DNA from: Candidatus Omnitrophota bacterium
Lineage (GTDB): Bacteria > Omnitrophota > Gorgyraeia > JAHJTE01
Direction: 5' to 3'
NCBI GenBank assembly: GCA_018830005.1
Contig: JAHJTE010000001.1
Coordinates: 709,624 to 773,623 of the forward strand
DNA length: 64,000 bases
The notes beneath the pieces were generated by a model. The model saw nothing but the letters and a program-made list of their open reading frames with translations. It was not told the origin of the DNA and did no database searches. Every line of letters begins with the position of its first letter. Positions within the stretch are counted from its first letter, which is position 1. The position numbers were made by a program, and so were the translations under genes. Below, one piece after another: positions 10,975 to 60,316 of this stretch.

Positions 10975-12291
10975 ATGAGGAAAATCAGTCCTGCGAGTTC
11001 CCTATCCGGCAGCCTGACCTTAGGCGGCGACAAATCGATTTCTCACCGGGCAATAATTTTAAGCTCTATCAGCGCCTCGCATGTTAGGATAAAAAATTTT
11101 TATCCATCTCAAGATTGCCTTTATACCCTGAGGGCCATGCGTAGCTTAGGCGTAGAGATTCGCCAGCTAAAAAAAGGACTATTGGATATATCAGGCGTGG
11201 GTTTAGGTGGGTTATCTGCCTCTGGGAGTATTTTTTTAGGTGATTCCGGCACAACCTATAGGTTGTTAGCAGGATTGCTATCTGGCCTGAGATGCTCAAT
11301 TAGTTTGAAGGCGGGAAAAAGCCTTTCTAAAAGACCGATGCGAAGAATCATTGTCCCCTTAACAAAGATGGGGGCAGTTATTAAAGGCCGGCAAGGGAAA
11401 AAATTTGAAAGTTATCCTCCTTTAAATATTAAAGGTGGCAATTTGAAAGGGATTATTTATAAACTGCCAGTAGCAAGTGCCCAGGTAAAATCTGCGATTC
11501 TTCTGGCTGGCTTAAATGCTAAGGGTAAGACTTGTATAAATGAAAAGGTCAGCTCGCGTGATCACACTGAAAGAATGCTAAAGACCTTTGGTGTTTCTGT
11601 TTCTGTTAAGGCAGGCAACATTAGGTTGCAGCCTCCCAAAAAAGAACTAAAAGGGCCGCCTCAGATCACGATCCCGGGTGATTTTTCTTCTGCGGCATTT
11701 TTTATTGTAGCTGCACTCCTGCTAAACGGCTCAAGGCTTACTATAAAAGGCGTAGGCGTGAATCCTACGCGTACGGGTTTGTTGAAGGTATTAAGAAGGA
11801 TGAAGGCAAATATTAAAGTCATTCCGCTTGCTAAAAATAGGCCAGATCTTGAGCCTATAGCTGAGGTAATTATAAGGAGTTCAGCATTGAAGGCGACCAA
11901 GGTGAGCCCAAAAGAGATTCCTTCTTTGATTGATGAGATACCAATCCTTATGGTAGCGGCAAGCTTTGCAAATGGCACTACTAGAATTCCTGCTGTAGAT
12001 GAATTAAGAGTCAAAGAGACTGATAGGATTTTCTCAATGCTTTATAATCTGAAGCGAATGGGTGTTAATATCAGGATTAAGAAAGAATCAGGCAAAGAGA
12101 CCATCTACATCAAAGGCCTTAAGCGATTAAAGGCTGTCAGGCTCAGGAGCTTTTCAGATCATCGTAGCGCAATGGCCTTGGTTGTTGCTGCTTGCTGCGC
12201 AGAAGGAGTGAGTTTCTTAGATGATACTTCTTGCATCCGCAAGTCCTTTCCTGATTTTTTTAAAGCGTTGGAGTCAGTCAAAGTTACTTAA
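10975..12291 (+). CDS. aroA: 3-phosphoshikimate 1-carboxyvinyltransferase (EPSP synthase)
   Basis: LTLGGDKSISHRAIIL, LGDSGTTYRLL and the conserved RVKETDRI motif. Confidence 0.9.
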   Translation: MRKISPASSLSGSLTLGGDKSISHRAIILSSISASHVRIKNFYPSQDCLYTLRAMRSLGVEIRQLKKGLLDISGVGLGGLSASGSIFLGDSGTTYRLLAGLLSGLRCSISLKAGKSLSKRPMRRIIVPLTKMGAVIKGRQGKKFESYPPLNIKGGNLKGIIYKLPVASAQVKSAILLAGLNAKGKTCINEKVSSRDHTERMLKTFGVSVSVKAGNIRLQPPKKELKGPPQITIPGDFSSAAFFIVAALLLNGSRLTIKGVGVNPTRTGLLKVLRRMKANIKVIPLAKNRPDLEPIAEVIIRSSALKATKVSPKEIPSLIDEIPILMVAASFANGTTRIPAVDELRVKETDRIFSMLYNLKRMGVNIRIKKESGKETIYIKGLKRLKAVRLRSFSDHRSAMALVVAACCAEGVSFLDDTSCIRKSFPDFFKALESVKVT

Positions 12292-17696: not shown

Positions 17697-19412
17697 ATGC
17701 AAGATTTATTATTGAGCGTAAAAAAGCCAGCTCGTTATATTGGCACTGAGTTTAATGGCAATCATGGCCTAAAACAAGATGTGGCTGTAAAATTCGCCAT
17801 CTGTTTTCCGGGTCTATACGAGATAGGCATGAGTAATTTGGGTTTGAGAATAATATATGGTCTTCTGAATAGTCAGCAAGATTGTTTATGCGAGAGATTC
17901 TTTCTGCCGGCACCTGATATGCTTGGATTGATAAAGAGCAAAAAGGCTAAATTTACATCCCTTGAGTCAGGACGTAGTTTAAGTGATTTTGATATTGTTG
18001 GTTTTTCACTCCAGCATGAGTTAGATTATACAAATGTATTGCACATGCTAGAGCTTGCTGGATTGCCTTTTTTTTCGAGGCAACGCCATGAAAATCATCC
18101 TTTGATAATTGCAGGAGGTCCTGCCTTAGCTAATCCTGAGCCAATAGCTGATTTTTTTGACTTATTTATTATCGGCGAGGCAGAAGAGGCCCTTCTAGAA
18201 TTGACTGCTGAATATAAAAAGTTCCCTAGCAGGCTTAATCGCAAAGAATTGCTGGCGCGGCTTTCAAAGATAGACGGCATATATGTTCCAATGCTTAAAG
18301 GCAGAGTTGGTTTTTCTGTTAGGCGCCGATTCATTAAAGACCTAAATTCATCTTTTTTTCCGCAAGACTGGATTGTTCCTTATATCCCTATTGTTCATGA
18401 TAAGATAATGCTTGAGGTAATGCGCGGCTGTCCACATTCTTGTCGCTTTTGCCAGGCGAGAATGTTTTATTCTCCTTTTAGGATAAAGAGCAAAGAAAGG
18501 ATTGTTCAACTAGGTTTAGCAGCACAGGAGAAAAGCGGCTACGAAGAGATATCGTTGTTAGGTCTATCTTCCTTGGATCATCCCCAGATAAAAGAAATCT
18601 ATAGCTGTTTGACTGATGCCTTGCGTAGTCAATGTGTCGGCGTCTCTTTAGGTTCGCTGCGACCAAGCTCTAGGGTTTTGAATCTGCTGGAGATGACAGC
18701 CAAGATAAAAAAGGTCGGACTTACTTTGGCCATAGAAAGCGGCTCAAACTGGCTGCGGCAGCTTATAAACAAGCAAATAGATATGGATTCATTAAAAGAA
18801 TTGATTCAAGCTTGTTATTCTAAAGGCCTAAGACGGATTAAGCTCTATTTTATGTTCGGCCTGCCTTTTGAGAGAGAGGATGATCTGGAATCAATTGCCG
18901 ATATAATCTACGAATTAGCTCATATAGGAGGCAGGCTTAGAAAGAATCTATTGTTTTCAGTAAGCATTAATCCTTTTATTCCTAAACCACATACTGTTTT
19001 TCAATGGCATCCTATGGATGATTTGAAGACCTTAGATAGAAAAAAGAGGTTTTTGATTTCAGCAATTTATAAGCGGATCAAGAATGTAAAGATTAGTTTT
19101 CATTCTCCTGGTATGAGTTATGTAGAGGCGCTTCTTGCTCGTGGCGACAGAAAGATGTCTGGACTTATTATCGAGGCATTTAAAAGAGGTGCGCTAATGG
19201 ACTCTTACGGTGATTATTTTAATTTTGACTTATGGCAGGAGGCTGAAAAAGCAGCTGGGATTGACGCCGGGAGTTATCTTTATCGTGAAACTATAGATGA
19301 GCAAAAATTGTGCTGGGACTATATAGATATGGGCTACGATAAAGAAAGGCTTAAAATAGAATACGAAGATGTTATTAAACTCGGGCGTATGAGGCCAGGC
19401 CAGGGGTCCTAA
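17697..19412 (+). CDS. uncharacterised radical SAM protein with an N-terminal B12-like/Rossmann region (TIGR03960-like)
   Basis: A CPHSCRFC (CX3CX2C) radical SAM cluster motif. Its position after rodA matches the TIGR03960 family context. Confidence 0.7.
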   Translation: MQDLLLSVKKPARYIGTEFNGNHGLKQDVAVKFAICFPGLYEIGMSNLGLRIIYGLLNSQQDCLCERFFLPAPDMLGLIKSKKAKFTSLESGRSLSDFDIVGFSLQHELDYTNVLHMLELAGLPFFSRQRHENHPLIIAGGPALANPEPIADFFDLFIIGEAEEALLELTAEYKKFPSRLNRKELLARLSKIDGIYVPMLKGRVGFSVRRRFIKDLNSSFFPQDWIVPYIPIVHDKIMLEVMRGCPHSCRFCQARMFYSPFRIKSKERIVQLGLAAQEKSGYEEISLLGLSSLDHPQIKEIYSCLTDALRSQCVGVSLGSLRPSSRVLNLLEMTAKIKKVGLTLAIESGSNWLRQLINKQIDMDSLKELIQACYSKGLRRIKLYFMFGLPFEREDDLESIADIIYELAHIGGRLRKNLLFSVSINPFIPKPHTVFQWHPMDDLKTLDRKKRFLISAIYKRIKNVKISFHSPGMSYVEALLARGDRKMSGLIIEAFKRGALMDSYGDYFNFDLWQEAEKAAGIDAGSYLYRETIDEQKLCWDYIDMGYDKERLKIEYEDVIKLGRMRPGQGS

Positions 19413-21558: not shown

Positions 21559-23274
21559 ATGGTTTCTTTAAAAGAACGCCTTACAGAGATCCTGATTAAG
21601 AATAAAATCATCACGCGGGAGAACCTGGATAAGGCGATTGCAGTTCAGTCTAAAGAAGGCGGAAGGCTGAGCGATATCCTTGTGCGTTTAGGATATGTAG
21701 ACCAGAAAGACTTAGTTATTGCCTTAAGTGAAGGTTTGGGCCTGCCCCCGATTGACCTAAACCGTTTCAAGATTGAATCGGAAGTAACTAAACTTATCCC
21801 CCAGGAGACCGCAAGGCACTACCAGATAATCCCTGTATCAAAAATGGGTAATACGCTTACCTTGGCTATGGCCGATCCTCTCAACGTCTTTGCTATTGAT
21901 GCAGTCAAGACCTTGACAGGTTTTGATATAAATCCGATTATCGCAAAGCCGGAAGATGTGATGAATGCAATTACTCAATATTACGGAGAGGACTCTTACC
22001 AGGCTATAGAAGATATAATTGATGAAATGGGTAAAGATAGCGAGCTGGAAGTTATTAAGGATGAAAAGATAGATTATGCAGACGTGCAGGAATTGGCTCG
22101 TCTTACTCAAGAAGCCCCTGTAATTAAGATTACCAATCTTTTCCTAAAGCAGGGAATTGAAGCCAGGGCCTCGGATATATTAATTGAGCCGTTTGAGAAA
22201 AGTGTTCGCGTTAGGCTACGTGTTGATGGCATGTTAAAAGAGATTGAATCCCCGCCTAGATCTTTACATGCTTCCGTAGTCTCTAGGATTAAGGTAATGT
22301 CTGGAATGGATATAGCCGAACATAGGCTTCCTCAGGATGGAAGATTTAAGATCAAGCTAGAAGGCAAGGATGTTGATTTTCGTGTTTCAGTTTTGCCTTC
22401 TAGCTTTGGAGAAAAGGTTGCTTTGCGTATCCTGGATAAAACTACGGCAAAATTGGATATTACCCAACTTGGATTTGACAAGCATGCCGTGGAGGTTCTA
22501 AAAAAAAGTGCCCTTAAGCCGCATGGTATGATTCTTACCTGCGGCCCTACAGGAAGCGGTAAGACAACCACGTTATATTCTTTGCTTAAATTTATCGATG
22601 CCCCAGATAAGAACATTATTACAGTCGAAGACCCTGTAGAATACCAACTTCGCGGCATTAATCAGGTCACTGTAAATGTAGATATTGGACTTACATTTGC
22701 CAGTTGCCTGCGTTCTATCTTGCGGCAGGATCCTGACATTATTATGGTAGGTGAAATTCGCGATTTTGAAACAGTCGATATTTCAATTAAGGCCGCGTTA
22801 ACAGGCCATCTTGTTTTGAGTACGTTACATACTACTACAGCTCCTGGTTCTGTGATTCGGCTTGGAGATATGGGCGTAGAACCATTTTTAATTACCTCTA
22901 GTGTTATTGCTGTTATGTCCCAGAGGCTACTACGCAAGCTTTGCGAACGCTGTAAAGAAGAGATAGTAGTTAAAGAAGAGGTCTCCAAGAAGGTAGGCAT
23001 AAAGACAGGGACAAAGGTCTTTGCTGCAACGGCCTGCAAGAATTGTCTTAATACTGGTTATGCTGGCCGTTTAGGAATAATAGAGATTTTAGAATTAACC
23101 CCCAAGGTTAAAGAGTTGATACTTGGTCGGGTGCCGGAGGATGTGATTAAGAAAGCTGCTCGCGAGGAAGGGATGAAGACACTTCAGGAGGCTGGTATAG
23201 AAAAAGTTATCGAGGGCCTCACTTCTATAGACGAAGTTGTGCGCCTTACAGCGCCTGATAAAGAAATGGCATAA
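21559..23274 (+). CDS. pilB: type IV pilus assembly ATPase PilB/GspE (copy 1)
   Basis: A GspE-N domain, Walker A GPTGSGKTT, Asp and His boxes and a C4 Zn motif CERC...CKNC. Confidence 0.9.
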   Translation: MVSLKERLTEILIKNKIITRENLDKAIAVQSKEGGRLSDILVRLGYVDQKDLVIALSEGLGLPPIDLNRFKIESEVTKLIPQETARHYQIIPVSKMGNTLTLAMADPLNVFAIDAVKTLTGFDINPIIAKPEDVMNAITQYYGEDSYQAIEDIIDEMGKDSELEVIKDEKIDYADVQELARLTQEAPVIKITNLFLKQGIEARASDILIEPFEKSVRVRLRVDGMLKEIESPPRSLHASVVSRIKVMSGMDIAEHRLPQDGRFKIKLEGKDVDFRVSVLPSSFGEKVALRILDKTTAKLDITQLGFDKHAVEVLKKSALKPHGMILTCGPTGSGKTTTLYSLLKFIDAPDKNIITVEDPVEYQLRGINQVTVNVDIGLTFASCLRSILRQDPDIIMVGEIRDFETVDISIKAALTGHLVLSTLHTTTAPGSVIRLGDMGVEPFLITSSVIAVMSQRLLRKLCERCKEEIVVKEEVSKKVGIKTGTKVFAATACKNCLNTGYAGRLGIIEILELTPKVKELILGRVPEDVIKKAAREEGMKTLQEAGIEKVIEGLTSIDEVVRLTAPDKEMA

Positions 23275-23280
23275 ATTAAA

Positions 23281-24981
23281 ATGGCAACTTTAAGCAATAA
23301 GATATTAGAGATTTTAGTTAAGACAAAGCGCATCTCCCTTAAGCAGAAGCAGCAGGTTTTGTCTTTAAAGAAGCAAAAGGATTCATCAATCAAAGATATC
23401 CTTATTAATGAGGGTTTTATTTCTAATAAGGAGTTGTTAGCAGTTCTTTCAGAAGAATTTAGATTACCGCCTTTAGATCTATCTAAATATAAAATTGATG
23501 CGGAGATAATCAAGATTATTCCCGAACGCCTGGCTCGCCAGCATCATCTTATCTGCGTTTCTCAGATTGGCTCTACGATTACTGTGGCAATGAGTGATCC
23601 TTTAAATATATTCGCGCTTGATGATTTGCGGATTTTGACAAAAAAGGAAATTGATCCTGTAATATCAACTGAAAGCGATATAAACAAAGCTATTGAAAAA
23701 TATTATTGCGGGGACGTGGTTGCTATTTCTTCTTTGCTTGATGAGGGAGATAAAACAGCAGAGGTATTAAGTGTTGATGGCGAACAATCAAATATATCAG
23801 CTGTTATCGAAGAGAGCCAAAAGGCCCCGATTGTAAAAGTCGTTGATTTGATTATTGCCGAGGCCCTTTATAAACGGGCTTCTGATATTCATGTTGAGCC
23901 GGCTGAAGAAGGTTTACGAGTGCGTTACCGCATAGATGGCAATCTGTATGACACTCTTACATTACCGAAAAGCAATCAAAATGCTATTTTAGCGCGACTT
24001 AAGATTATGAGCGGTTTAGACATAACCGAATCAAGGCTTCCGCAAGACGGACGCTTTAAGATTAGGTTGGAATCAAAGGAGATAGACTTTCGTGTTTCTG
24101 CACTGCCGACGACATTTGGTCAAAAGTTCGTTCTGAGGGCATTGGATAAATCAAGTCTTTCTATGGGGTTGGATAAGCTTGGTTTCTTTCCAGAGAGATT
24201 GGCGCTGTTTAAACAGGCGATAGCAAAGCCTTATGGAATGATTTTAGTTACAGGGCCAACAGGAAGCGGGAAATCTACAACCCTTTATTCTATATTGAAT
24301 CGATTGAATACGATGGAAAAAAACATAATTACTGTTGAAGACCCTGTTGAGTATCAGATTGAGGGCATCACCCAGATACATGTAAAACCTGAGATTGGCC
24401 TTACCTTTGCTGCTGGATTACGTTCCATACTGCGTCAAAGTCCGGATATCATTATGATTGGTGAGATTCGCGATTCCGAGACAGCAGATATAGCTGTGCG
24501 TGCTTCTCTAATTGGGCAGTTAGTTTTTTCTACCTTGCACACAAATGATGCTGCTGGCGCAATCACACGTTTAATTGATATGGGGGTTGAGCCATTTCTT
24601 GTTGCCTCTTCAATTATTATGACCTGTGCACAGAGGCTTTGTCGTAAAATATGTAATGCCTGCAAAGAGCCAGTCGAAATCCCGGACAGTATCCTTAAAA
24701 AATTAACTCTAAGGCCAACCAAGACAGATACCTTTTATGCAGGACGCGGCTGTAACCACTGCAACAATACTGGTTATTTTGGCAGATTGGCAGCTTTAGA
24801 AGTCTTGATGATTGACGATAATATATGCAGGATGATTTTAAAAAAATCTTCTAGTGATCAGATTAAGGAATATGCAATTAAAAATAATGGCATGCAGACA
24901 ATCTGGGATGATATGATGCGTAAGCTTAAAATGGGTGCTACTACTTACGAGGAAGTTTTACGCGTAGCGATTGATACATAA
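23281..24981 (+). CDS. pilB: type IV pilus assembly ATPase PilB/GspE (copy 2, tandem paralogue)
   Basis: Same architecture as copy 1. Walker A GPTGSGKST, C4 motif CRKICNAC...CNHC. Confidence 0.9.
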   Translation: MATLSNKILEILVKTKRISLKQKQQVLSLKKQKDSSIKDILINEGFISNKELLAVLSEEFRLPPLDLSKYKIDAEIIKIIPERLARQHHLICVSQIGSTITVAMSDPLNIFALDDLRILTKKEIDPVISTESDINKAIEKYYCGDVVAISSLLDEGDKTAEVLSVDGEQSNISAVIEESQKAPIVKVVDLIIAEALYKRASDIHVEPAEEGLRVRYRIDGNLYDTLTLPKSNQNAILARLKIMSGLDITESRLPQDGRFKIRLESKEIDFRVSALPTTFGQKFVLRALDKSSLSMGLDKLGFFPERLALFKQAIAKPYGMILVTGPTGSGKSTTLYSILNRLNTMEKNIITVEDPVEYQIEGITQIHVKPEIGLTFAAGLRSILRQSPDIIMIGEIRDSETADIAVRASLIGQLVFSTLHTNDAAGAITRLIDMGVEPFLVASSIIMTCAQRLCRKICNACKEPVEIPDSILKKLTLRPTKTDTFYAGRGCNHCNNTGYFGRLAALEVLMIDDNICRMILKKSSSDQIKEYAIKNNGMQTIWDDMMRKLKMGATTYEEVLRVAIDT

Positions 24982-25001: not shown

Positions 25002-26201
25002 ATGACAGTTTTCAAATATACGGCGAAAAATAGATCAGGTAAAAAGATCTCAGGCATGCTAGAAGCTGATAATCAGAATCTGGCTATTGAGACTTTGCGT
25101 AAGAAAGAATTAATACCTATTAGCCTATCGGAAGAGAAGGCAAAACGGCGTGTTAGTGGGCGCAAGGTTAAATTGGATGATCTTGTTATTTTTTCTCGTC
25201 AGCTGGCTACGATGGTTGATTCAGGAATTCCCCTTGTTCAGGCATTAAGCATTCTAGGAGAGCAGGTGCAAAAGGAAAATTTCCGGCAGGTGATTTTAAG
25301 GATACGTCAAGATATCGAAGAAGGTGCAGGTTTTTGTGATGCCCTGGCTAAGCACACAGCAGTATTTTCTCCGCTTTACATTAATATGGTAAAGGCAGGA
25401 GAAGCAAGTGGTTTATTGAATGAGATATTAGATAGGTTAGCTAATTATTTAGAAAAGGCAAGCGCCTTGCAGAGAAAGGTAAAATCTTCCTTGACCTATC
25501 CAATCGTGGTAATTGCCATGGCCTTAATTATTACTATCTTTTTGCTGGTTAAGGTTGTTCCAACATTTAGAGGTATATTTGATATGCTTGGCGGTACCTT
25601 GCCTTTACCTACGCGGATCTTGATTGGTTTCAGCGATATGTTGCGGCATTCATTCTTGTATATTGTAATTTTCTTAGTTGGTGTAGTATTCCTGCTTAAG
25701 AAATGGTCAAAGACTCCAAGGGGGAGAAGGACCATTGATTATTACCTACTCAAGCTTCCTGTCTTTGGCCCACTTTTAAAGAAAGTAGCAATAGCTAAGT
25801 TCAGCCGGACACTTTCTACGTTAGTAAGAAGCGGCGTTCCTATCTTAGGTTCCTTAGAGATTGTAGGCAAGACAGCAGGCAATAAAATAGTTGAAGAGGC
25901 ATTAGATAACGCGCGCAAGTCTATTAAAGAAGGTGAGCCTATTTCCGGCCCCTTGAGTGAAAGCGATGCGTTTCCGCCTATGGTAGTAAGGATGATTGCT
26001 GTAGGCGAACAGACAGGCGAGTTGGAGAAGATGTTAAGCAAGATCGCTGACTTTTATGATGAGCAGGTTGATGCCACAGTAAGTTCTATGACAAGTTTAA
26101 TTGAGCCAATGGTCATCGCCTTTTTAGGTGTTATTATCGGTGGCATTGTAGTCTCATTATTCTTGCCCATATTTAAGATTACGGAACTATTGGGAAGATG
26201 A
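25002..26201 (+). CDS. pilC: type IV pilus platform protein PilC (GspF family)
   Basis: Two GspF repeats and three TM helices. It follows the pilB genes. Confidence 0.9.
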   Translation: MTVFKYTAKNRSGKKISGMLEADNQNLAIETLRKKELIPISLSEEKAKRRVSGRKVKLDDLVIFSRQLATMVDSGIPLVQALSILGEQVQKENFRQVILRIRQDIEEGAGFCDALAKHTAVFSPLYINMVKAGEASGLLNEILDRLANYLEKASALQRKVKSSLTYPIVVIAMALIITIFLLVKVVPTFRGIFDMLGGTLPLPTRILIGFSDMLRHSFLYIVIFLVGVVFLLKKWSKTPRGRRTIDYYLLKLPVFGPLLKKVAIAKFSRTLSTLVRSGVPILGSLEIVGKTAGNKIVEEALDNARKSIKEGEPISGPLSESDAFPPMVVRMIAVGEQTGELEKMLSKIADFYDEQVDATVSSMTSLIEPMVIAFLGVIIGGIVVSLFLPIFKITELLGR

Positions 26202-26305: not shown

Positions 26306-26352
26306 ATATTTTACAGGGCCTAATTTTTATGGTATACTTGAGGTAACATTGA

Positions 26353-26468
26353 AAAAGGCAAACCAGTCGTAAGGCTGGGACGCAAAGCTAAAGGGCCTTG
26401 TGAAAGGGTAGCCAGTTACCAATGAGAATAACCTATTTCAGGTGACTGGAATAGGTTTTATTTTTTTG
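26353..26468 (+). ncRNA. c-di-GMP-I (GEMM) riboswitch-like leader with a terminator expression platform (copy 1)
   Basis: GGCAAACC-AGTC-GTAA(GNRA)-GGCTGG-GACGCAAAGC-TAAAGGGCC matches the GEMM core (Vc2: GGCAAACCAUUCGAAAGAGUGGGACGCAAAGCC). It is followed by hairpin CCTATT...AATAGG plus a T-run at 26430-26468. Confidence 0.8.
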
Positions 26469-26578: not shown

Positions 26579-27007
26579 ATGAGAAACAGATCAGGTTTTA
26601 CCTTGGTTGAAATCATGATTGTTGTTGCTATTATTGCTTTATTGGCAGCCATAGCAATACCTAACCTGTTGCGTGCTCGTCTCAATGCTAACGAGTCTGC
26701 ATCGATTGCTGCTATGCAGACGCTTTCTACTGCAGCCCAGAGTTATCGTTCAGCTAATCCTAGTTATCCTACTAACTTAGCTGCTTTGTCTAACGCAACT
26801 CCACCTTATATTGATTCTGTATTAGCAGGTGGAACAAAATCAGGCTATGCATTTATTTTGACAGGTACCACAAATGCATTTACTGCAACTGCTGCTCCTA
26901 GCACTGTGGGCACTACGGGTAATAGATATTTCTTTGTTGATGAAAGTGGTGTTGTCAGGTATGCTAGTGGCGCTGCAGCTACATCTGCAAGCAGCCCAAT
27001 TGAATAA
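26579..27007 (+). CDS. pilA: type IV major pilin (PilA-like), leader MRNRSG followed by FTLVEIM
   Basis: GGAGG RBS 9 nt upstream of the ATG at 26579 (the track start at 26570 is a TTG). Class III signal peptide G|FTLVEIMIVVAIIALLAAIAIPNL, 142 aa, Ser/Thr-rich C-terminal tail. Confidence 0.85.
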   Translation: MRNRSGFTLVEIMIVVAIIALLAAIAIPNLLRARLNANESASIAAMQTLSTAAQSYRSANPSYPTNLAALSNATPPYIDSVLAGGTKSGYAFILTGTTNAFTATAAPSTVGTTGNRYFFVDESGVVRYASGAAATSASSPIE

Positions 27008-50499: not shown

Positions 50500-52227
50500 T
50501 TATTTAGTAGGAGGCCTTTCTGGTATGAGGAAAACACACACCTTGTTTCTACCTGTCTCTTTGGCTTTATAAAGCGCCTTGTCAGCGAAAGAGATTAATT
50601 CTTTAGGGGTCTGGGCATCTGTCTCAGTTAAGGATGCGATTCCTATACTGATTGTTACCTTTAGAGGCTGGTTCCCTTTATAAGGGAAGTTAAATTCTTC
50701 AATAGATTTTCTTAGACGTTCAGCGTAGATACTGGCGCCTTTTGCAGTTGTATTAGGCAAAATACAGCAGAATTCTTCACCGCCGTAACGGGCCACGACA
50801 TCCACTCTGCGGCTGCTCTCCTGGATGATCCTAGCAACATTCTTTAAGATTACATTTCCTTCTTCATGCCCGTAAGTGTCGTTTACTTTTTTAAAGTGGT
50901 CAACATCCATTATCAAAAATGTAAGTTGAGTATTTTCCTCTTTTGCGTGTGCAAATTCAGAATCAAGTTTAAGTATTAGATAGCGATGTACAAAGAGTCC
51001 TGTGAGCCCATCAGTAATCGCCATAGTTTTTAAGATTGCTGCCTCAACCAATAAGCGCATATATTTGTATGTCTCCGTGCCCAGATACAAAAATGCGGCA
51101 ATAAATATCGGACCAAAGTAGTCAAAGGATAAGTTTTGATAGGAAAGCAGAAAGGAAACAAGCATAAGCCCTAAAAGCTCTAGCGCCAAAAGAAGGGAAC
51201 CTTTAAGGATTGAGAGTTTATAGGTGAATATTGCGGTGCAAATTGCAACTATTAGAATCAACAGGATTGAGAAAATCTCAGGCGTCTCTTTTAGAAAATT
51301 TCCTGATAAGTACATTAGGATTTCATTGGCATTGATTACTACCCCTGGCATCAGGCCCAGGGGGGTAGGGTAGACATCGTGAAAGATTTCAGCAGTCGTG
51401 CCGACGAGAATAATCTTTTTGTGGATACTTGCTTTACTAGCAGTTTTATTGATTATTTTATGAAAGGGGATGATTTCAAAGTCTTTATTTTTTGCCTGGT
51501 AATTAATCAATGCTGTGCCTTTTTCTGAAAGAGGAATGATTACTTGCTTTGTTGTTTTTGCCACATCTTTTAGATTGATAAGCATTCTGCGATTATTAAG
51601 TGAGACGTCGTTTTTAATATCGCTTTCGTGATAGCGCAAAAAGGTCTTTAGTCCGAAAGAGGTTTTTAGTATTCCCGGAAGGTCTTTTCTTGGAAACAGG
51701 AGGCGGCAATTACGCACGGTTAAATCTTTATCGCGTGTCTTGTTAACAAAGCCAAAGCCTAAGGCTGCTTTTTGCAAAGGCAGATAAGGTTCATTATAAC
51801 TTTTATCCGGGGCAATGTAACTTGCAAGAATTACATTGCCTGCATTTTTAATTGCCTCAGCCAGTGCCGAATCATCATCCTTATTATTGCTTTCTCCTGT
51901 AAATACCATATCCAGACTAATGATCTTTGGTCTGTATTCATTTAGGTTATCAATAAATTCACTCAAGAAACTTCGTGACCAGGGCCATTTTTTCTGCAAG
52001 ACCATGAATGATTCGTCATCAATAACAACAAGGCTGATCTCTTTTAATTCTTTGGGTTTAGGTTTTAACTGATAAGTAAGGCGATTAAACAAATCAGCAG
52101 TTTTTAACGAAAGGATATTTAAAAAAGTAATTTTATGGGAGGAAAAAGAATAAGCCAGGCTTATAATCATCGCCACACAGATTACCTTTATCAGATTCTT
52201 ATCCCAGGATATCTTTTTCTTTTTCAT
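50500..52227 (-). CDS. CHASE2 sensor-domain diguanylate cyclase (canonical GGEEF, RxxD I-site present)
   Basis: N-terminal periplasmic CHASE2-like region, three C-terminal TM helices, GGDEF domain with DVDHFKKVNDTYGHEEGN and RRVDVVARYGGEEF. Confidence 0.85.
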   Translation of the reverse strand: MKKKKISWDKNLIKVICVAMIISLAYSFSSHKITFLNILSLKTADLFNRLTYQLKPKPKELKEISLVVIDDESFMVLQKKWPWSRSFLSEFIDNLNEYRPKIISLDMVFTGESNNKDDDSALAEAIKNAGNVILASYIAPDKSYNEPYLPLQKAALGFGFVNKTRDKDLTVRNCRLLFPRKDLPGILKTSFGLKTFLRYHESDIKNDVSLNNRRMLINLKDVAKTTKQVIIPLSEKGTALINYQAKNKDFEIIPFHKIINKTASKASIHKKIILVGTTAEIFHDVYPTPLGLMPGVVINANEILMYLSGNFLKETPEIFSILLILIVAICTAIFTYKLSILKGSLLLALELLGLMLVSFLLSYQNLSFDYFGPIFIAAFLYLGTETYKYMRLLVEAAILKTMAITDGLTGLFVHRYLILKLDSEFAHAKEENTQLTFLIMDVDHFKKVNDTYGHEEGNVILKNVARIIQESSRRVDVVARYGGEEFCCILPNTTAKGASIYAERLRKSIEEFNFPYKGNQPLKVTISIGIASLTETDAQTPKELISFADKALYKAKETGRNKVCVFLIPERPPTK

Positions 52228-52435
52228 TGTAAAATTAGTCTAGCATAAAAGTGGGGTTTAGGCAAGGCTAAAATCTCTGAGTATGTTTTTATAACTTTAA
52301 CATTAGCAATAGGTTGCATTAAGGATATCTTTTGTTTTCAGCTTGAAATCATGCATTGTCTATGTTATACTTAAATTGTTAGGAAATAAGCTCGAAAAAA
52401 CCCTGAATCTAGTGTTCTGTATAGGGCATTAGTCG

Positions 52436-52604
52436 GAAAAGGCAAACCATTTGAAAGAATGGGGCGGATTGAAGTGTCTGGCTTGATAAGAGCCGCAAAG
52501 CTAAAAGAGCCTACGTCCTGAATTTTTAGGATAGGGTAGTCAGCTGCCGAGATTAAGGTTTGTAACCCTATTCTTTTGTAAAAAAATAGGGTTTTTTATT
52601 TTTA
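52436..52604 (+). ncRNA. c-di-GMP-I (GEMM) riboswitch-like leader with terminator (copy 3, extended variant)
   Basis: GGCAAACC-ATTT-GAAA-GAATGG-GGCGG[...GGCTTGATAAGAGCC]GCAAAGC. Terminator AACCCTATTC...AATAGGGTT plus T-run directly before the ATG at 52617. Confidence 0.8.
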
Positions 52605-56995: not shown

Positions 56996-57175
56996 TTTCT
57001 GTATTTGTAACTTTAATATAGCAATATGTTGTATAAGATAAAAAAATATTGCTTAGCCTTGAAATATAACAGGAGGTATGTTATATTTTATGTTGACAAT
57101 TTAGAAATGAAGCGAAAAGTCCCGAATCTAGTAGTTTAGGTGTCGGGATCCCTTCTAAAATGCTAAATATTTTAG

Positions 57176-57343
57176 AAGGGGGCAAACCATTTGAAAGAAT
57201 GGGGCGGGCCGAGTGCCTGGTCCTAATAAGGACCGCAAAGCTAAAGAGCCTAAGTCCTGAATTTTCAGGATATGGTAGTCAGTTGCCGAAGTCAAAACAG
57301 CAATTTACTACCCTATTCTTTTAAGTGGAATAGGGTTTTTTTA
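57176..57343 (+). ncRNA. c-di-GMP-I (GEMM) riboswitch-like leader with terminator (copy 4, extended variant)
   Basis: GGCAAACCATTTGAAAGAATGGGGCGG[GCC...GGTCCTAATAAGGACC]GCAAAGC. GGTAGT at 57264 can pair with ACTACC of the terminator 5' arm. Terminator CCCTATTC...GAATAGGG plus T7. Confidence 0.8.
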
Positions 57344-57362: not shown

Positions 57363-57632
57363 ATGGACAAGAAAGGTTTTACACTAGTTGAGATTATGAT
57401 TGTAGTCGGGGTTCTTGCGCTGCTAATGGCTATTTCATTGCCGATATTATCAAGAATGCGCCAAAATGCAAATGAGGCAAAAACCCAGGCTGAACTTAAT
57501 TCACTGTATAAGGCAGTTAACATGTATTATGCCTATAATGGCAGATACCCTAGCGAGTTGAGCGAATTAAGTGATTATATTACAATAGCTAACATTGATA
57601 ATAAATACGAGTTGAATTCGGATCTACCTTAA
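57363..57632 (+). CDS. short type IV pilin (89 aa), MDKKG|FTLVEIMIVVGVLALLMAISLP
   Basis: ATG at 57363 with an AGGA RBS. The track start at 57345 is a GTG inside the terminator T-tract. Shares the paralogous pilin motif with the pilin at 26579. Confidence 0.8.
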   Translation: MDKKGFTLVEIMIVVGVLALLMAISLPILSRMRQNANEAKTQAELNSLYKAVNMYYAYNGRYPSELSELSDYITIANIDNKYELNSDLP

Positions 57633-57652: not shown

Positions 57653-58264
57653 ATGATTAAGAATTGTTTAGTCTCCATATTTAGTTTGATCTTGCTGCTA
57701 GGCTTATCCTTAAGTTCTGCAGAGGCAGCTTCTAATAATACCTGGTTGATTAAATCAAAGGCCACTGGTTCAGAACAGGTATTTGCTGTGTGGATGGATG
57801 GTCGGTTGAGTTCTGGCACACCTGTCTCAGAGGACGGGATTATTAGTAGTGTAACCTTTAGTGGCAGTCAATATCTTTCTGCCAAGGAATGGGTTACAAA
57901 TGAGCAGACTGGTGCAGTCCGCACTTATTGGAGCAATAAACCTATTGTCTATGGAATGGAATCAGAAGGAGGTACATACAGGATTGTCTTATCGGCAAAG
58001 AATTATGTTGGTAGCACTGGTTGGAGCCTGCCAAAGGGATATAAGAATTTTAATGTCGTTGTTAAAGTAGCTAATAAGAAGGTTGGTACAATTCTCCTAG
58101 AGGCAAGTGATACAGAGGTAAAGACAGGGTATCTGGTCCTAAATGATATCGAATCAGGCGTTCATCAGGTCAAACTAATCTGGAATAATGATAGCTACAA
58201 GCCAGCAAAGAAGTGGGATGCAAATATAGAAATCCAAAGTGTAGCATTTGAGAAGATTGAATAA
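57653..58264 (+). CDS. hypothetical secreted beta-rich protein
   Basis: Signal peptide LLLGLSLSSAEA|AS. 203 aa, no recognisable motif. Co-transcribed 20 nt after the short pilin. Confidence 0.45.
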   Translation: MIKNCLVSIFSLILLLGLSLSSAEAASNNTWLIKSKATGSEQVFAVWMDGRLSSGTPVSEDGIISSVTFSGSQYLSAKEWVTNEQTGAVRTYWSNKPIVYGMESEGGTYRIVLSAKNYVGSTGWSLPKGYKNFNVVVKVANKKVGTILLEASDTEVKTGYLVLNDIESGVHQVKLIWNNDSYKPAKKWDANIEIQSVAFEKIE

Positions 58265-58345: not shown

Positions 58346-58374
58346 TTGAAATAAGCCTTTATTTGTGTTATACT
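58346..58374 (+). promoter_or_regulatory. candidate promoter TTGAAA-N17-TATACT upstream of GEMM copy 5
   Basis: Read directly. Confidence 0.4.
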
Positions 58375-58399
58375 TTAGTTGACAATTAGTTAAGTACGA

Positions 58400-58530
58400 A
58401 AAGGGCAAACTATTCGAGAGAATAGGACGCAAAGCCAAGAGTCCTTAGCATCTTTAGATGTCAAGGATTGTCTGGTTACCGAAATTAAAAATGTGGACCT
58501 ATTCTTTTCGAAGAATAGGTTTTTTATTTA
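58400..58530 (+). ncRNA. c-di-GMP-I (GEMM) riboswitch-like leader with terminator (copy 5)
   Basis: GGCAAACTATTCGAGAGAATAGGACGCAAAGCC is almost a base-for-base match to the Vc2 aptamer core, with a GAGA GNRA loop. Terminator GACCTATTC...GAATAGG plus T-run. Confidence 0.85.
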
Positions 58531-58606
58531 TATAAAGAAAATTGCTTGAAGCTTATGTTTTATTGCGGTATACTATTAAGCGGTATATTACTAGGAGGAT
58601 CTAAAA

Positions 58607-60316
58607 ATGAACAGGAATCTTAGAAAGGGATTTAGTAGTATCGAATTTATCGGTGTGCTTACGGTAATTGTTGTAATTTTGGCATTTTCTATCCCTAAAA
58701 TTGTATCTACAAAAATAGCAGCAAACGAAACTGCCGCAATCAGCGATCTCTACAAATTGGGATCAGCGTTTGAAGCGTATCGCTCAATATACAGTACTTA
58801 CCCAAGAGATTTTTCCGACCTTAACAACCTTGCTCCGGATTTAATCGGGCAGGAGTTTGTCTCAGTCTCTGGGGCAGAATACGCTAAAGGCGGATATGCC
58901 TTTAAGATTGATTCTGTTGATACTGATATTGTGCCTACATATGCCTTTAGAATCTATGCTGAGCCAAAGGTTTCTTCGTTCAGGGTTACTGCTGGTCTTG
59001 TTAGCGGTATTCCTACTGGTAGACGCGTATTTAAGTATGGTGTGAATAAGGCAGACGCTAGTGTTGGTTATTATGCTAAGAATCCTGGAACGAGTCAGCC
59101 TGAGGCAATCTCCGACTGGATTCCTCTTACAGGAGTTGAAGGACGGGGTTTTATGGGCACATCAACAACTACACCACCTCCACCACCTCCACCACCAACT
59201 TCACCTCCTACTACAACAACTACAACAACTACTACTACAACGTCCGATACTGCACTTACATTTACAACGCAGACTATTACAACTACTATAGCCACTATAA
59301 CCACTACAACAACTACAACTAGCACAACGACTACTACACTAGGGCTAATCGGAACTACTACCACTGTACAGACAACAACAACCACAGATGTAACAGAAAC
59401 ACTTCCTGGTCTTCTTAGTTGTCCTTATGTTCATGTTTGGGATGGAAGTCAGTTTATAAAAGACAATGATATTATTCCGGGTGGAAATACTCATGAATAT
59501 ACTGATTACTATAAATTAACCAAACAGGTTAGTGCGGATAAAAATGGTGACTTATTATTTAAGATTATTGAACCTTTGGATGAAAAATCTTATCTTGATA
59601 AGGCACATCTAATAGAGGTTAGACATCCTAAGTTTGTTAATATTGCTCCTTCGCCAGAGGGTGAGATGTTCACTTATAAACAAAGGGCCTTAAGGCGACC
59701 AAGAAAGGCCATTGATACAAATGGTGAAGATATTCTAAGTCTTGTTTCTAGCAAGGGCAAAGGTGATTATCATGGTCTTCCTGGAGATTTTGTTACATTT
59801 GATTTTGGTAAGATTAAAAAAGCACCTAATGGCATGCGACTTATCTTAAGCTCTGACTTAGAATATGCCTATGCTGCTAAAAGCACGAAGTCGCTGCATA
59901 TTGAGGTGTTTCTTGAGGATAGCTATTGGCAGGAGATCTCTATAGTTCATCCTCATGAGGCCTGGGATATCTGGGCAATAGATCTAGCTTCATTTAAAGA
60001 CAAGATTGCTGGTGAGCTTAGGGTAAAGATCAACTGGAAAAATGAACACAAGCTAGATTTTGCACTTTTAGATATGTCAGCCCAGGTTCCGATTAAGATT
60101 AGAGACCTAGCCTTGGTTGAGGCAAAACACAATAAGAGATTCTTCAGTAATGTAATGTCTCTACTTAAGAAGTCTGATAATAGATATGCCAAGATGGTTA
60201 AAGGCGATGAGATATCTCTTAGATTTAGAGGTTCTAGCAAGGGCTTAGAGCCTAAAGAGGTGTTAAGTTATATCTTTGTCAGCGAGGGCTTTTATAAGCC
60301 GCTCATTAAGAAATGA
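58607..60316 (+). CDS. pilin-domain fusion protein: prepilin N-terminus + pilin globular head + Pro/Thr-rich linker + roughly 330-aa C-terminal domain of unknown function
   Basis: KG|FSSIEFIGVLTVIVVILAFSIP. A paralogous pilin motif (AISDLYKLGSAFEAYRSIYSTYP), then a P8 and poly-T linker, then a novel domain starting CPYVHVWDGSQ. Confidence 0.7.
   Translation: MNRNLRKGFSSIEFIGVLTVIVVILAFSIPKIVSTKIAANETAAISDLYKLGSAFEAYRSIYSTYPRDFSDLNNLAPDLIGQEFVSVSGAEYAKGGYAFKIDSVDTDIVPTYAFRIYAEPKVSSFRVTAGLVSGIPTGRRVFKYGVNKADASVGYYAKNPGTSQPEAISDWIPLTGVEGRGFMGTSTTTPPPPPPPPTSPPTTTTTTTTTTTSDTALTFTTQTITTTIATITTTTTTTSTTTTTLGLIGTTTTVQTTTTTDVTETLPGLLSCPYVHVWDGSQFIKDNDIIPGGNTHEYTDYYKLTKQVSADKNGDLLFKIIEPLDEKSYLDKAHLIEVRHPKFVNIAPSPEGEMFTYKQRALRRPRKAIDTNGEDILSLVSSKGKGDYHGLPGDFVTFDFGKIKKAPNGMRLILSSDLEYAYAAKSTKSLHIEVFLEDSYWQEISIVHPHEAWDIWAIDLASFKDKIAGELRVKINWKNEHKLDFALLDMSAQVPIKIRDLALVEAKHNKRFFSNVMSLLKKSDNRYAKMVKGDEISLRFRGSSKGLEPKEVLSYIFVSEGFYKPLIKK

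Follow-up and report, generated by a model that had tools for sequence, protein, structure and literature searches.

Five c-di-GMP-I aptamers before pilin operons in an Omnitrophota genome are probable transcription-termination OFF switches

The 64,000-nucleotide stretch of DNA analysed here (the window) contains five c-di-GMP-I aptamers, each of them followed by a hairpin with a U-tract and then by pilin genes, and we consider it probable that the five leaders are transcription-termination riboswitches of the OFF type, in which the ligand, the stop of the polymerase and the sense of the ligand effect are predictions. A first-pass annotation of the window had described these leaders as aptamer/antiterminator/terminator switches acting on transcription, and this core claim held computationally, as promoter, aptamer, hairpin with U-tract, and pilin genes are present in 5/5 copies. 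What that annotation called every copy were four copies, and these are all real, but a fifth one had been missed. The transcriptional c-di-GMP-I OFF switch is a known and well-established kind of element, and the basic finding is ordinary in this respect; new are the host phylum, the number of pilin operons (five) that would be under such control, and an expression platform that deviates from the usual one by a switching strand inside the aptamer and by a terminator that is conserved in sequence. The elements on which the following paragraphs rely are these:

26348-26424, + strand: aptamer of copy 1 (Rfam)
32144-32230, + strand: aptamer of copy 2 (Rfam)
52431-52551, + strand: aptamer of copy 3 (Rfam), with an insertion as in copy 4
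57171-57290, + strand: aptamer of copy 4 (RF01051, 50.3 bits, gathering score 35)
58395-58484, + strand: aptamer of copy 5 (Rfam), the one absent from the first-pass annotation
57187-57202, + strand: P1b hairpin of copy 4
52465-52495 (copy 3) and 57205-57234 (copy 4), + strand: insertion next to the ligand pocket, two small hairpins each
26430-26457 and U-tract, + strand: predicted terminator of copy 1 (element span 26348..26468)
32238-32267 and U-tract, + strand: predicted terminator of copy 2 (element span 32144..32274)
52564-52593 and U-tract, + strand: predicted terminator of copy 3 (element span 52431..52599)
57310..57343, + strand: predicted terminator of copy 4 (stem ACCCUAUUCU / GGAAUAGGGU at 57310-57336, U7 at 57337-57343)
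58495-58522 and U-tract, + strand: predicted terminator of copy 5 (element span 58395..58527)

All five aptamers lie on the + strand and were found above gathering score in an Rfam scan of the whole window (GEMM-I, RF01051, clan CL00126; 66.8, 51.8, 43.6, 50.3 and 68.9 bits for copies 1 to 5, versus gathering scores of 35 and 59). All 16 modelled pairs are kept in the five copies, with the exception of one P1 pair in copy 4, and compensatory changes (e.g. C-G to U-A) maintain the helices P1a, P1b and P2; in a set of six related leaders, 9 of 27 aptamer pairs were changed on both sides according to RNAalifold. The pattern GGC...GCAAAGC...(A/G)CC is present in 5/5 copies, and the alignment shows that the ligand-contacting G, A and C are retained, i.e. 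the G and the A that flank P1a on its 5' and 3' side, respectively, and the junction C that precedes the 3' strand of P1, which we take to be the nucleotides numbered G20, A47 and C92. The G that specifies c-di-GMP is likewise kept in all five, and c-di-GMP is the ligand that would be expected from these sequences. Copies 1 and 5 scored best with the c-di-GMP-I-GGC model (RF03167), above its gathering score, and read GCAAAG where that model has the consensus GCGAAG and RF01051 has GCAAAG. The label GGC presumably refers to a G instead of an A at the position 3' of P1a, and since both copies carry the A at this diagnostic position, they are ordinary c-di-GMP-I aptamers, for which the label is misleading. 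That the label might denote a change in the P1b bulge was considered and rejected when both Rfam consensus lines were compared, the copies carrying the canonical A. A literature search on the GGC variant and on riboswitches of Omnitrophota returned nothing directly relevant.

The hairpins follow 7-22 nt after each aptamer and have stems of 9-12 bp, which are succeeded by at least 6 U. Those of copies 2 and 3 were missed by a terminator scan only since their loops exceed its 8-nt limit, and the terminators were located by anchoring on the conserved motif. Hairpins of the type CCTATT...AATAGG occur five times in the window, exclusively after the five aptamers, with a chance expectation of 0.34; the possibility that they represent a generic genome-wide terminator or repeat was rejected on the grounds of this distribution in the window. 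It can be expected from their composition that these hairpins act as intrinsic terminators at which RNA polymerase would stop. They do not sequester the ribosome-binding sites. In the Omnitrophota loci that were used for comparison (see below), the few extra matches to the motif lie within a pilB coding sequence or behind a degenerate aptamer. The latter case (L027, 11297-11445) is an aptamer-like sequence after pilC that the covariance model missed at E<0.01, although the conserved terminator GUGCCUAUUCUU...GAGAAUAGG is still present there.

A promoter-like site of the type TTGAAA-17-TGnTATACT precedes every aptamer of the window, and sites of the type TTGAAw-16/17-TGnTATACT precede nearly all related aptamers. 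The genes on the 3' side encode prepilin-type proteins with N_methyl motif, and also PilX_N, T2SSG-like and ComP-like proteins. Copy 2 is followed by a PilX_N protein and then by pilM and further genes, copy 3 by three pilin-like genes and an 860-aa ORF, and copy 5 by a 569-aa protein with pilin-like N-terminus and a ComP-like minor pilin. The surrounding type IV pilus locus encodes PilB paralogs with MshEN, PilC, PilM and a divergently oriented CHASE2-GGDEF cyclase, and this combination of a cyclase with MshEN-containing PilB proteins suggests that c-di-GMP may be coupled to pili at both the RNA and the protein level. The best relatives of the PilC of the window all come from Candidatus Omnitrophota MAGs. 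The features of this context are:

57059..57087, + strand: predicted promoter of copy 4, TTGAAA-17-TG-TATATT
58346-58374, + strand: predicted promoter of copy 5 (promoter-like sequence)
57119..57180, + strand: 5' leader of copy 4 with two hairpins (sequence and MFE)
~26579-27007: pilin gene downstream of copy 1, which follows pilC (25002-26201)
57364..57632, + strand: first gene after copy 4, small prepilin-type protein with N_methyl motif, T2SSG-like
57653-58264: next ORF after this gene
50500-52227, - strand: CHASE2-GGDEF diguanylate cyclase, divergent from copy 3
21559-23274 and 23281-24981: PilB-type ATPases with MshEN (at least two in the locus)
17697-19412: third ORF of the same length, candidate for a further one

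For the antiterminator of such a switch, two aptamer strands come into consideration, namely the 3' strand of the aptamer and the loop with the 3' strand of P1b. The predicted pairings are:

26412-20 with 26441-49, + strand: copy 1 antiterminator CCAGUUACC : GGUGACUGG, plus UGAGA (26423-27) : UUUCA (26436-40)
32218-32226 with 32249-32257: copy 2 antiterminator GCCAGUUGC : GUAACUGGU, 9 bp, plus AAUAG (32228-32) : CUAUU (32242-46)
52528-37 with 52565-74, + strand: copy 3, candidate with the 3' strand, AGGAUAGGGU : ACCCUAUUCU, 10 bp
52453-64 with 52566-77, + strand: copy 3, candidate with P1b, GAAAGAAUGGGG : CCCUAUUCUUUU
57188..57204 with 57311-57327, + strand: copy 4, antiterminator 5' strand CAUUUGAAAGAAUGGGG, comprising the P1b 5' strand, GAAA loop and 3' strand; P=0.996
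57274..57286 with 57300-57312, + strand: copy 4, aptamer 3' strand GGUAGUCAGUUGC with the spacer GCAAUUUACUACC, 12/13 pairs; P=0.954
58417-26 with 58498-507, + strand: copy 5 antiterminator AGAGAAUAGG : CCUAUUCUUU, plus CGCA (58428-31) : UGUG (58492-95)

For copies 1 to 4, the first-pass annotation had named segments of the aptamer 3' strand as complementary to the 5' arm of the terminator, and all four complementary pairs were found at their places, most of them extending further. In copy 1, CCAGTTACC (26412-26420) and GGTGACTGG (26441-26449) form 9 pairs including one G-U, and in copy 2 the noted match CCAGTT/AACTGG extends to GCCAGUUGC:GUAACUGGU. Copy 3 has ATAGGG at 52531-52536 opposite CCCTAT at 52566-52571, and copy 4 has GGTAGT at 57274-57279 opposite ACTACC at 57307-57312, continued by AGUUGC (57281-86) : GCAAUU (57300-05), a helix that overlaps and removes the bottom 3 bp of the terminator. 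The generalization to every copy does not extend to copy 5, where 183/300 shuffles were as good, and the 5' arm is not the main partner in copies 1 and 2. There, the actual target is the terminator apex, which comprises the loop together with the final base of the 5' arm and the beginning of the 3' arm, and only the second short helix (UGAGA:UUUCA and AAUAG:CUAUU, respectively) contacts the 5' arm. When the last 22 nt of the aptamers were compared with the platforms, 6, 30, 24, 3 and 183 of 300 dinucleotide shuffles were as good in copies 1 to 5, and with the whole aptamer it was 52, 147, 35, 0 and 5 of 400, this latter test being too noisy for copies 1 and 2 individually, for which reason segment-specific tests were used instead. 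The short matches of the 3' strand that had been noted for copies 1 to 4 are thus only weakly above chance.

In copies 3, 4 and 5, the tetraloop of P1b together with its 3' strand (GAAAGAAUGGGG or GAGAGAAUAGG) can pair with the terminator 5' arm (CCUAUUCUUUU), and this pairing is stronger than the match of the 3' strand, with 13/1000, 0/1000 and 2/300 shuffles as good, respectively. The P1b 3' strand sequence of copies 4 and 5 includes GAAUGGGG or GAAUAGG. The helix of copies 3 and 4 is GAAAGAAUGGGG : CCCUAUUCUUUU, which in copy 4 is lengthened to 17-18 bp. Both candidate helices of copy 4 stack end to end and are able to coexist (-53.7 vs -55.3 kcal/mol), whereas those of copy 3 compete for the same 5' arm. 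Which of them prevails in copy 3 depends on the transcript start: with a transcript that begins at the aptamer, constraint folding favoured the P1b helix (-45.1 vs -23.7 kcal/mol), and with a transcript from the predicted start that includes the 5' leader, the 3'-strand helix was favoured by 2.2 kcal/mol (P 0.91 vs 0.08). Under either assumed start, some aptamer strand sequesters the terminator arm of copy 3. The view of the first-pass annotation that the 3' strand is the switching strand is therefore appropriate for copies 1 and 2 and partly for copy 4, but not for copy 5, which uses the P1b loop and 3' strand, and in copy 3 it depends on the start. That the 3' arm of the terminator pairs with the 5' strand of P1b was considered as well and dropped, as this pairing was inconsistent across relatives.

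Folding of the leaders with and without the aptamer constraint resulted in mutually exclusive pairings in 5/5 copies. In transcripts that end before the 3' arm, the MFE structure contains the antiterminator in all five copies, and in stepwise folding the antiterminator takes over once its 3' strand is made. After synthesis of the 3' arm, the terminator is back at the minimum in copies 1, 2, 3 and 5 and never in copy 4. Antiterminator pairs have ensemble probabilities of at least 0.95 in copies 1, 2, 4 and 5. If the aptamer pairs are enforced at full length, the terminator forms in 5/5 leaders, which agrees with the earlier reasoning that a locked aptamer lets the terminator form. At the level of secondary structure, the enforced aptamer lies 10-30 kcal/mol above the antiterminator as long as the 3' arm has not been transcribed, and in copy 4 the difference is still 21 kcal/mol at full length; this gap would have to be closed by the energy of the ligand and of tertiary contacts, or by kinetics. 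The first-pass annotation considered the opposite logic to be equally possible, and on this point we differ: the gap of 7-22 nt allows the aptamer and terminator to coexist, as they do in Cd1 and not in pilM (PMC9262584), and this coexistence renders an OFF switch clearly more likely than an ON switch.

Mechanistically, the proposed switch would operate as follows. The aptamer would be transcribed first, from its own promoter. If c-di-GMP is bound, P1, P1a, P1b and P2 would be locked, the CCUAUUC...GAAUAGG hairpin with its U-tract could form, and the polymerase would stop before reaching the pilin genes. Without ligand, an aptamer strand would pair with the emerging terminator region, thereby blocking the terminator and permitting read-through. 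The strand in copies 1 and 2 would consist of the 3' side of P2, the junction with the ligand-contacting C and the 3' side of P1, and would bind the terminator apex together with part of the 5' arm. In copy 5 and most relatives from other Omnitrophota, it would be the P1b tetraloop, the P1b 3' strand and the adjoining P1a 3' strand that bind the 5' arm of the terminator along with the bases immediately preceding it. Copy 4 would employ both strands together, and in copy 3 the alternatives would compete. For the P1b design, it is conceivable that the terminator arm invades the aptamer via two toeholds, the single-stranded GAAA loop and the GGGCAC beside the pocket, and both toeholds would be buried once the ligand and the tetraloop-receptor contact are in place.

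Comparative evidence comes from 80 Omnitrophota loci, on which a covariance model made from the five window aptamers was run. This search detected 18 further aptamers, most of which are located directly 3' of pilC and 5' of a major pilin that is highly conserved. These related leaders share (18/18) the terminator core CCUAUUC/GAAUAGG, which is present in the form of (G)CCUAUUC...GAAUAGG(C) at the stem base with a U-tract, and has been kept across genomes whose PilC proteins are only ~60% identical, while spacers, loops and aptamer insertions have diverged. Such a conservation of sequence implies that the terminator has another strand to pair with. Complementarity to (U)GUG-CCUAUUCUUU exists in a conserved segment of the aptamer, GAAAGARUGGG(G)CAC, and for the duplex of the P1b 3' strand with the 5' arm, 13 or fewer of 300 shuffles were as good in copy 5 and in 13/14 distant leaders. 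In a register test with 34 leaders, 82% of the cells pair, versus 46-63% in slid registers, and in the same leaders the covariation score was 0.222 versus 0.188 in shuffles, a value reached by 2/500 of them. The pairing is kept in variants (AGGAUGGG with CCCAUUCU; GGGUGGG with CCUAUCC), and the bases 5' of the stem (GUG/UGUG) match CAC/CACA in the aptamer, with UGCG being found where the aptamer has CGCA. RNAalifold predicted RUGGG:CCUAY as the only conserved long-range pairing in 15 leaders that end before the 3' arm, and in six leaders of the type of copies 1 and 2 it predicted CCAGUURC:GYNRCUGG together with AAURGR:CCUAUU, with one column showing A-U, G-U and G-C. In the P1b helix, many pairs have U opposite A or G, and true compensatory changes are few; as the aptamer side is nearly invariant and the U-rich arms tolerate A or G, the support consists of conserved complementarity more than of covariation. 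A metagenome scan mostly returned unrelated aptamers of gut Firmicutes, with the Omnitrophota type making up ~10 of 125. The aptamer 3' strand served as the antiterminator in 46 of 72 terminator-bearing metagenome leaders, mostly of one human-gut family, and the P1b design was seen only in the ~10 environmental leaders of the Omnitrophota type. As a more tentative proposal, it is possible that Omnitrophota possess a phylum-wide c-di-GMP-I lineage in which the P1b tetraloop and 3' strand, together with the pocket-flanking P1a strand, constitute the switching strand in place of the aptamer 3' end, and by which c-di-GMP represses the major pilin as well as four further pilin operons of a single type IV pilus locus.

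How do these leaders compare to known systems? In C. difficile, class I c-di-GMP switches are transcriptional OFF switches and class II are ON switches (PMC11477304). The closest parallel is Cd1 of the C. difficile flgB operon, a validated class I OFF switch in which the aptamer and terminator compete with a transient antiterminator that pairs G147-C87 and C148-G86, including the junction C that pairs with the ligand (PMC9262584). The leaders of the window share with Cd1 the aptamer class, the stand-alone terminator that coexists with the aptamer, and an antiterminator built from an aptamer strand and the terminator 5' strand; in copies 1 and 2, the ligand-pairing junction C is part of this aptamer strand, too. 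They differ from Cd1 in coming from another phylum (Omnitrophota), in preceding pilin instead of flagellar genes, in a terminator core sequence that is conserved across the phylum, and in that copies 4 and 5 and most Omnitrophota relatives use the internal P1b/P1a strand, ~70-125 nt 5' of the terminator, with the strands competing in copy 3. Cdi2_4 of the C. difficile type IV pilin operon is also a c-di-GMP leader with a terminator-based platform directly before pilin genes (PMC11477304), but it is a class II element of unrelated fold and ON logic, whereas the window leaders are of class I and their architecture predicts OFF. The c-GAMP switch (GEMM-Ib) before pilM in Geobacter metallireducens is a transcriptional switch with the GEMM-I fold that precedes pilus genes, and in this ON switch the aptamer and terminator are mutually exclusive (PMC9262584); in contrast, the window aptamers keep the c-di-GMP-specifying G and their terminators have no overlap with the aptamer. 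The human-gut c-di-GMP-I family resembles our leaders by a class I aptamer and a conserved terminator (GCACUGUCUG...CAGUGC) that follows 9-11 nt later, and its antiterminator, which is formed by the aptamer 3' strand, corresponds to the design that the first-pass annotation had assumed. This gut family (L081-L200, e.g. L090, L100, L115, L141) is large and nearly invariant, with the terminator GCACUGUCUGnnUGRCAGUGC and an antiterminator that uses GGCAG/CAGU/GCAU of the aptamer 3' strand.

What alternatives exist for c-di-GMP-dependent OFF switches? An ON switch, in which c-di-GMP prevents termination and raises pilin expression as in the C. difficile class II or the c-GAMP pilM switches, would fit the observation that in Firmicutes the usual effect of c-di-GMP is to promote type IV pili (PMC11477304) and the presence of MshEN PilB ATPases and a GGDEF cyclase in the locus, and a repression of pilins would indeed run opposite to what is seen in the pilin operon of C. 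difficile with its ON control. Moreover, even the full-length leader of copy 4 is more stable with the antiterminator than with the terminator, so that thermodynamics alone does not show a ligand-induced termination. ON switches of this family, however, need a mutually exclusive aptamer and terminator (PMC9262584). In the window, both are separated by the 7-22-nt gap without any overlap, the terminator forms in all five leaders with enforced aptamer, the bound state sequesters neither terminator arm, and all alternative partners of the terminator reside inside the aptamer. An extended P1 helix that overlaps the terminator, as an ON design would have it, was considered, and none was found. An ON switch thus seems improbable to us. 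It could also be that the complementarities are incidental, the hairpins being constitutive attenuators or insulators and the aptamers acting via translation, RNA stability or Rho, or not at all. Single matches of 6-9 nt are indeed near chance in the whole-aptamer test (52/400 in copy 1, 147/400 in copy 2), purine-rich aptamer strands are promiscuous partners for U-rich terminator arms, and in many relatives there is a promoter 3' of the terminator that would dilute the effect of a switch. Against this stand the conservation of the terminator core amid diverging loops and spacers in genomes with PilC proteins of ~60% identity, the way in which GUG/UGUG tracks CAC/CACA of the aptamer and UGCG goes with CGCA, the confinement of the motif to positions after aptamers in the window, and the significance of the family-wide duplex tests, and the accessible ribosome-binding sites speak against it as well. 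Mere coincidence therefore has a small likelihood in our estimation.

A further explanation concerns only some copies, chiefly copies 3 and 4, which might sense another ligand or might be ligand-independent structured leaders. These two copies have the lowest Rfam scores (43.6 and 50.3) and contain an insertion of ~29 nt with two hairpins that lies between the P1b bulge (GGC) and the P1a 3' strand, beside the ligand pocket, and thereby makes a multi-helix junction out of the internal loop at this place. In addition, copy 4 has GG in place of the consensus AA 5' of the pocket G (two A-to-G changes in the junction) and a 12-bp hairpin over the P1 5' strand. The insertion, the GG and this 5' hairpin make ligand binding by copies 3 and 4 less certain. 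Nevertheless, both score above the gathering score, the three ligand-contacting nucleotides (G, A and C) are kept in the alignment, both hairpins of the insertion show compensatory changes between copies 3 and 4, and a two-hairpin insertion recurs at the same site in a distant Omnitrophota MAG (L012, ~11345-11395), which suggests that the insertion is a maintained, functional variant. We thus regard it as unlikely, at least on these grounds, that copies 3 and 4 are anything other than c-di-GMP sensors. Other relatives carry large insertions in the P1b 5' strand instead (L069, L044, L039, L026, L059, L003, L079, L019, L006).

If the leaders function as OFF switches, c-di-GMP would shut off the major pilin and four other pilin operons, which is a concrete and testable regulatory link for an uncultured phylum, and such a repression of pilins would be the reverse of the ON control in Clostridioides. 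Since both the terminator and the pilC-riboswitch-pilA order have been conserved across Omnitrophota, the outcome of a single in vitro assay would be informative for many genomes. An internal hairpin near the ligand pocket that serves as switching strand would widen the repertoire of expression platforms, and it would account for the sequence conservation of the terminator, which is rarely seen: its 5' arm (GUGCCUAUUCUUU) would have been kept as a decoy for the internal P1b/P1a strand.

Some further features of the leaders and their relatives were noticed. Many pilC-riboswitch-pilA loci of Omnitrophota have a sigma-70 promoter close to the consensus (TTGACA-17/18-TATAAT or similar) 3' of the terminator and 5' of pilA (L069, L039, L079, L026, L003, L022, L062, L012 and L019; 28-135 nt past the terminator), and in these loci the major pilin would have one riboswitch-gated and one independent promoter. 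No such downstream promoter was detected before the pilin gene of copy 1 in the window, and behind copy 5 there is a second promoter-like site at 58546-58574, between the terminator and the gene start at 58607. Copies 3 and 4 have extensions of 53-77 nt on the 5' side of the aptamer (52395-52432 and 57112-57180, respectively) with the common hairpin motif CGAAAA-n-CCC(U/G)GAAUCUAGUR. In the leader of copy 4, hairpin 1 (57119-57149) has the loop GAAUCUAGU, which it has in common with copy 3, and hairpin 2 (57150-57180) has 12-13 bp and a 3' strand that overlaps the 5' end of the aptamer, covering the P1 5' strand. In copy 3, the 3' arm of the terminator and the U-tract (52587-52597) have a complement in AAAAAACCCUG (52395-52405).
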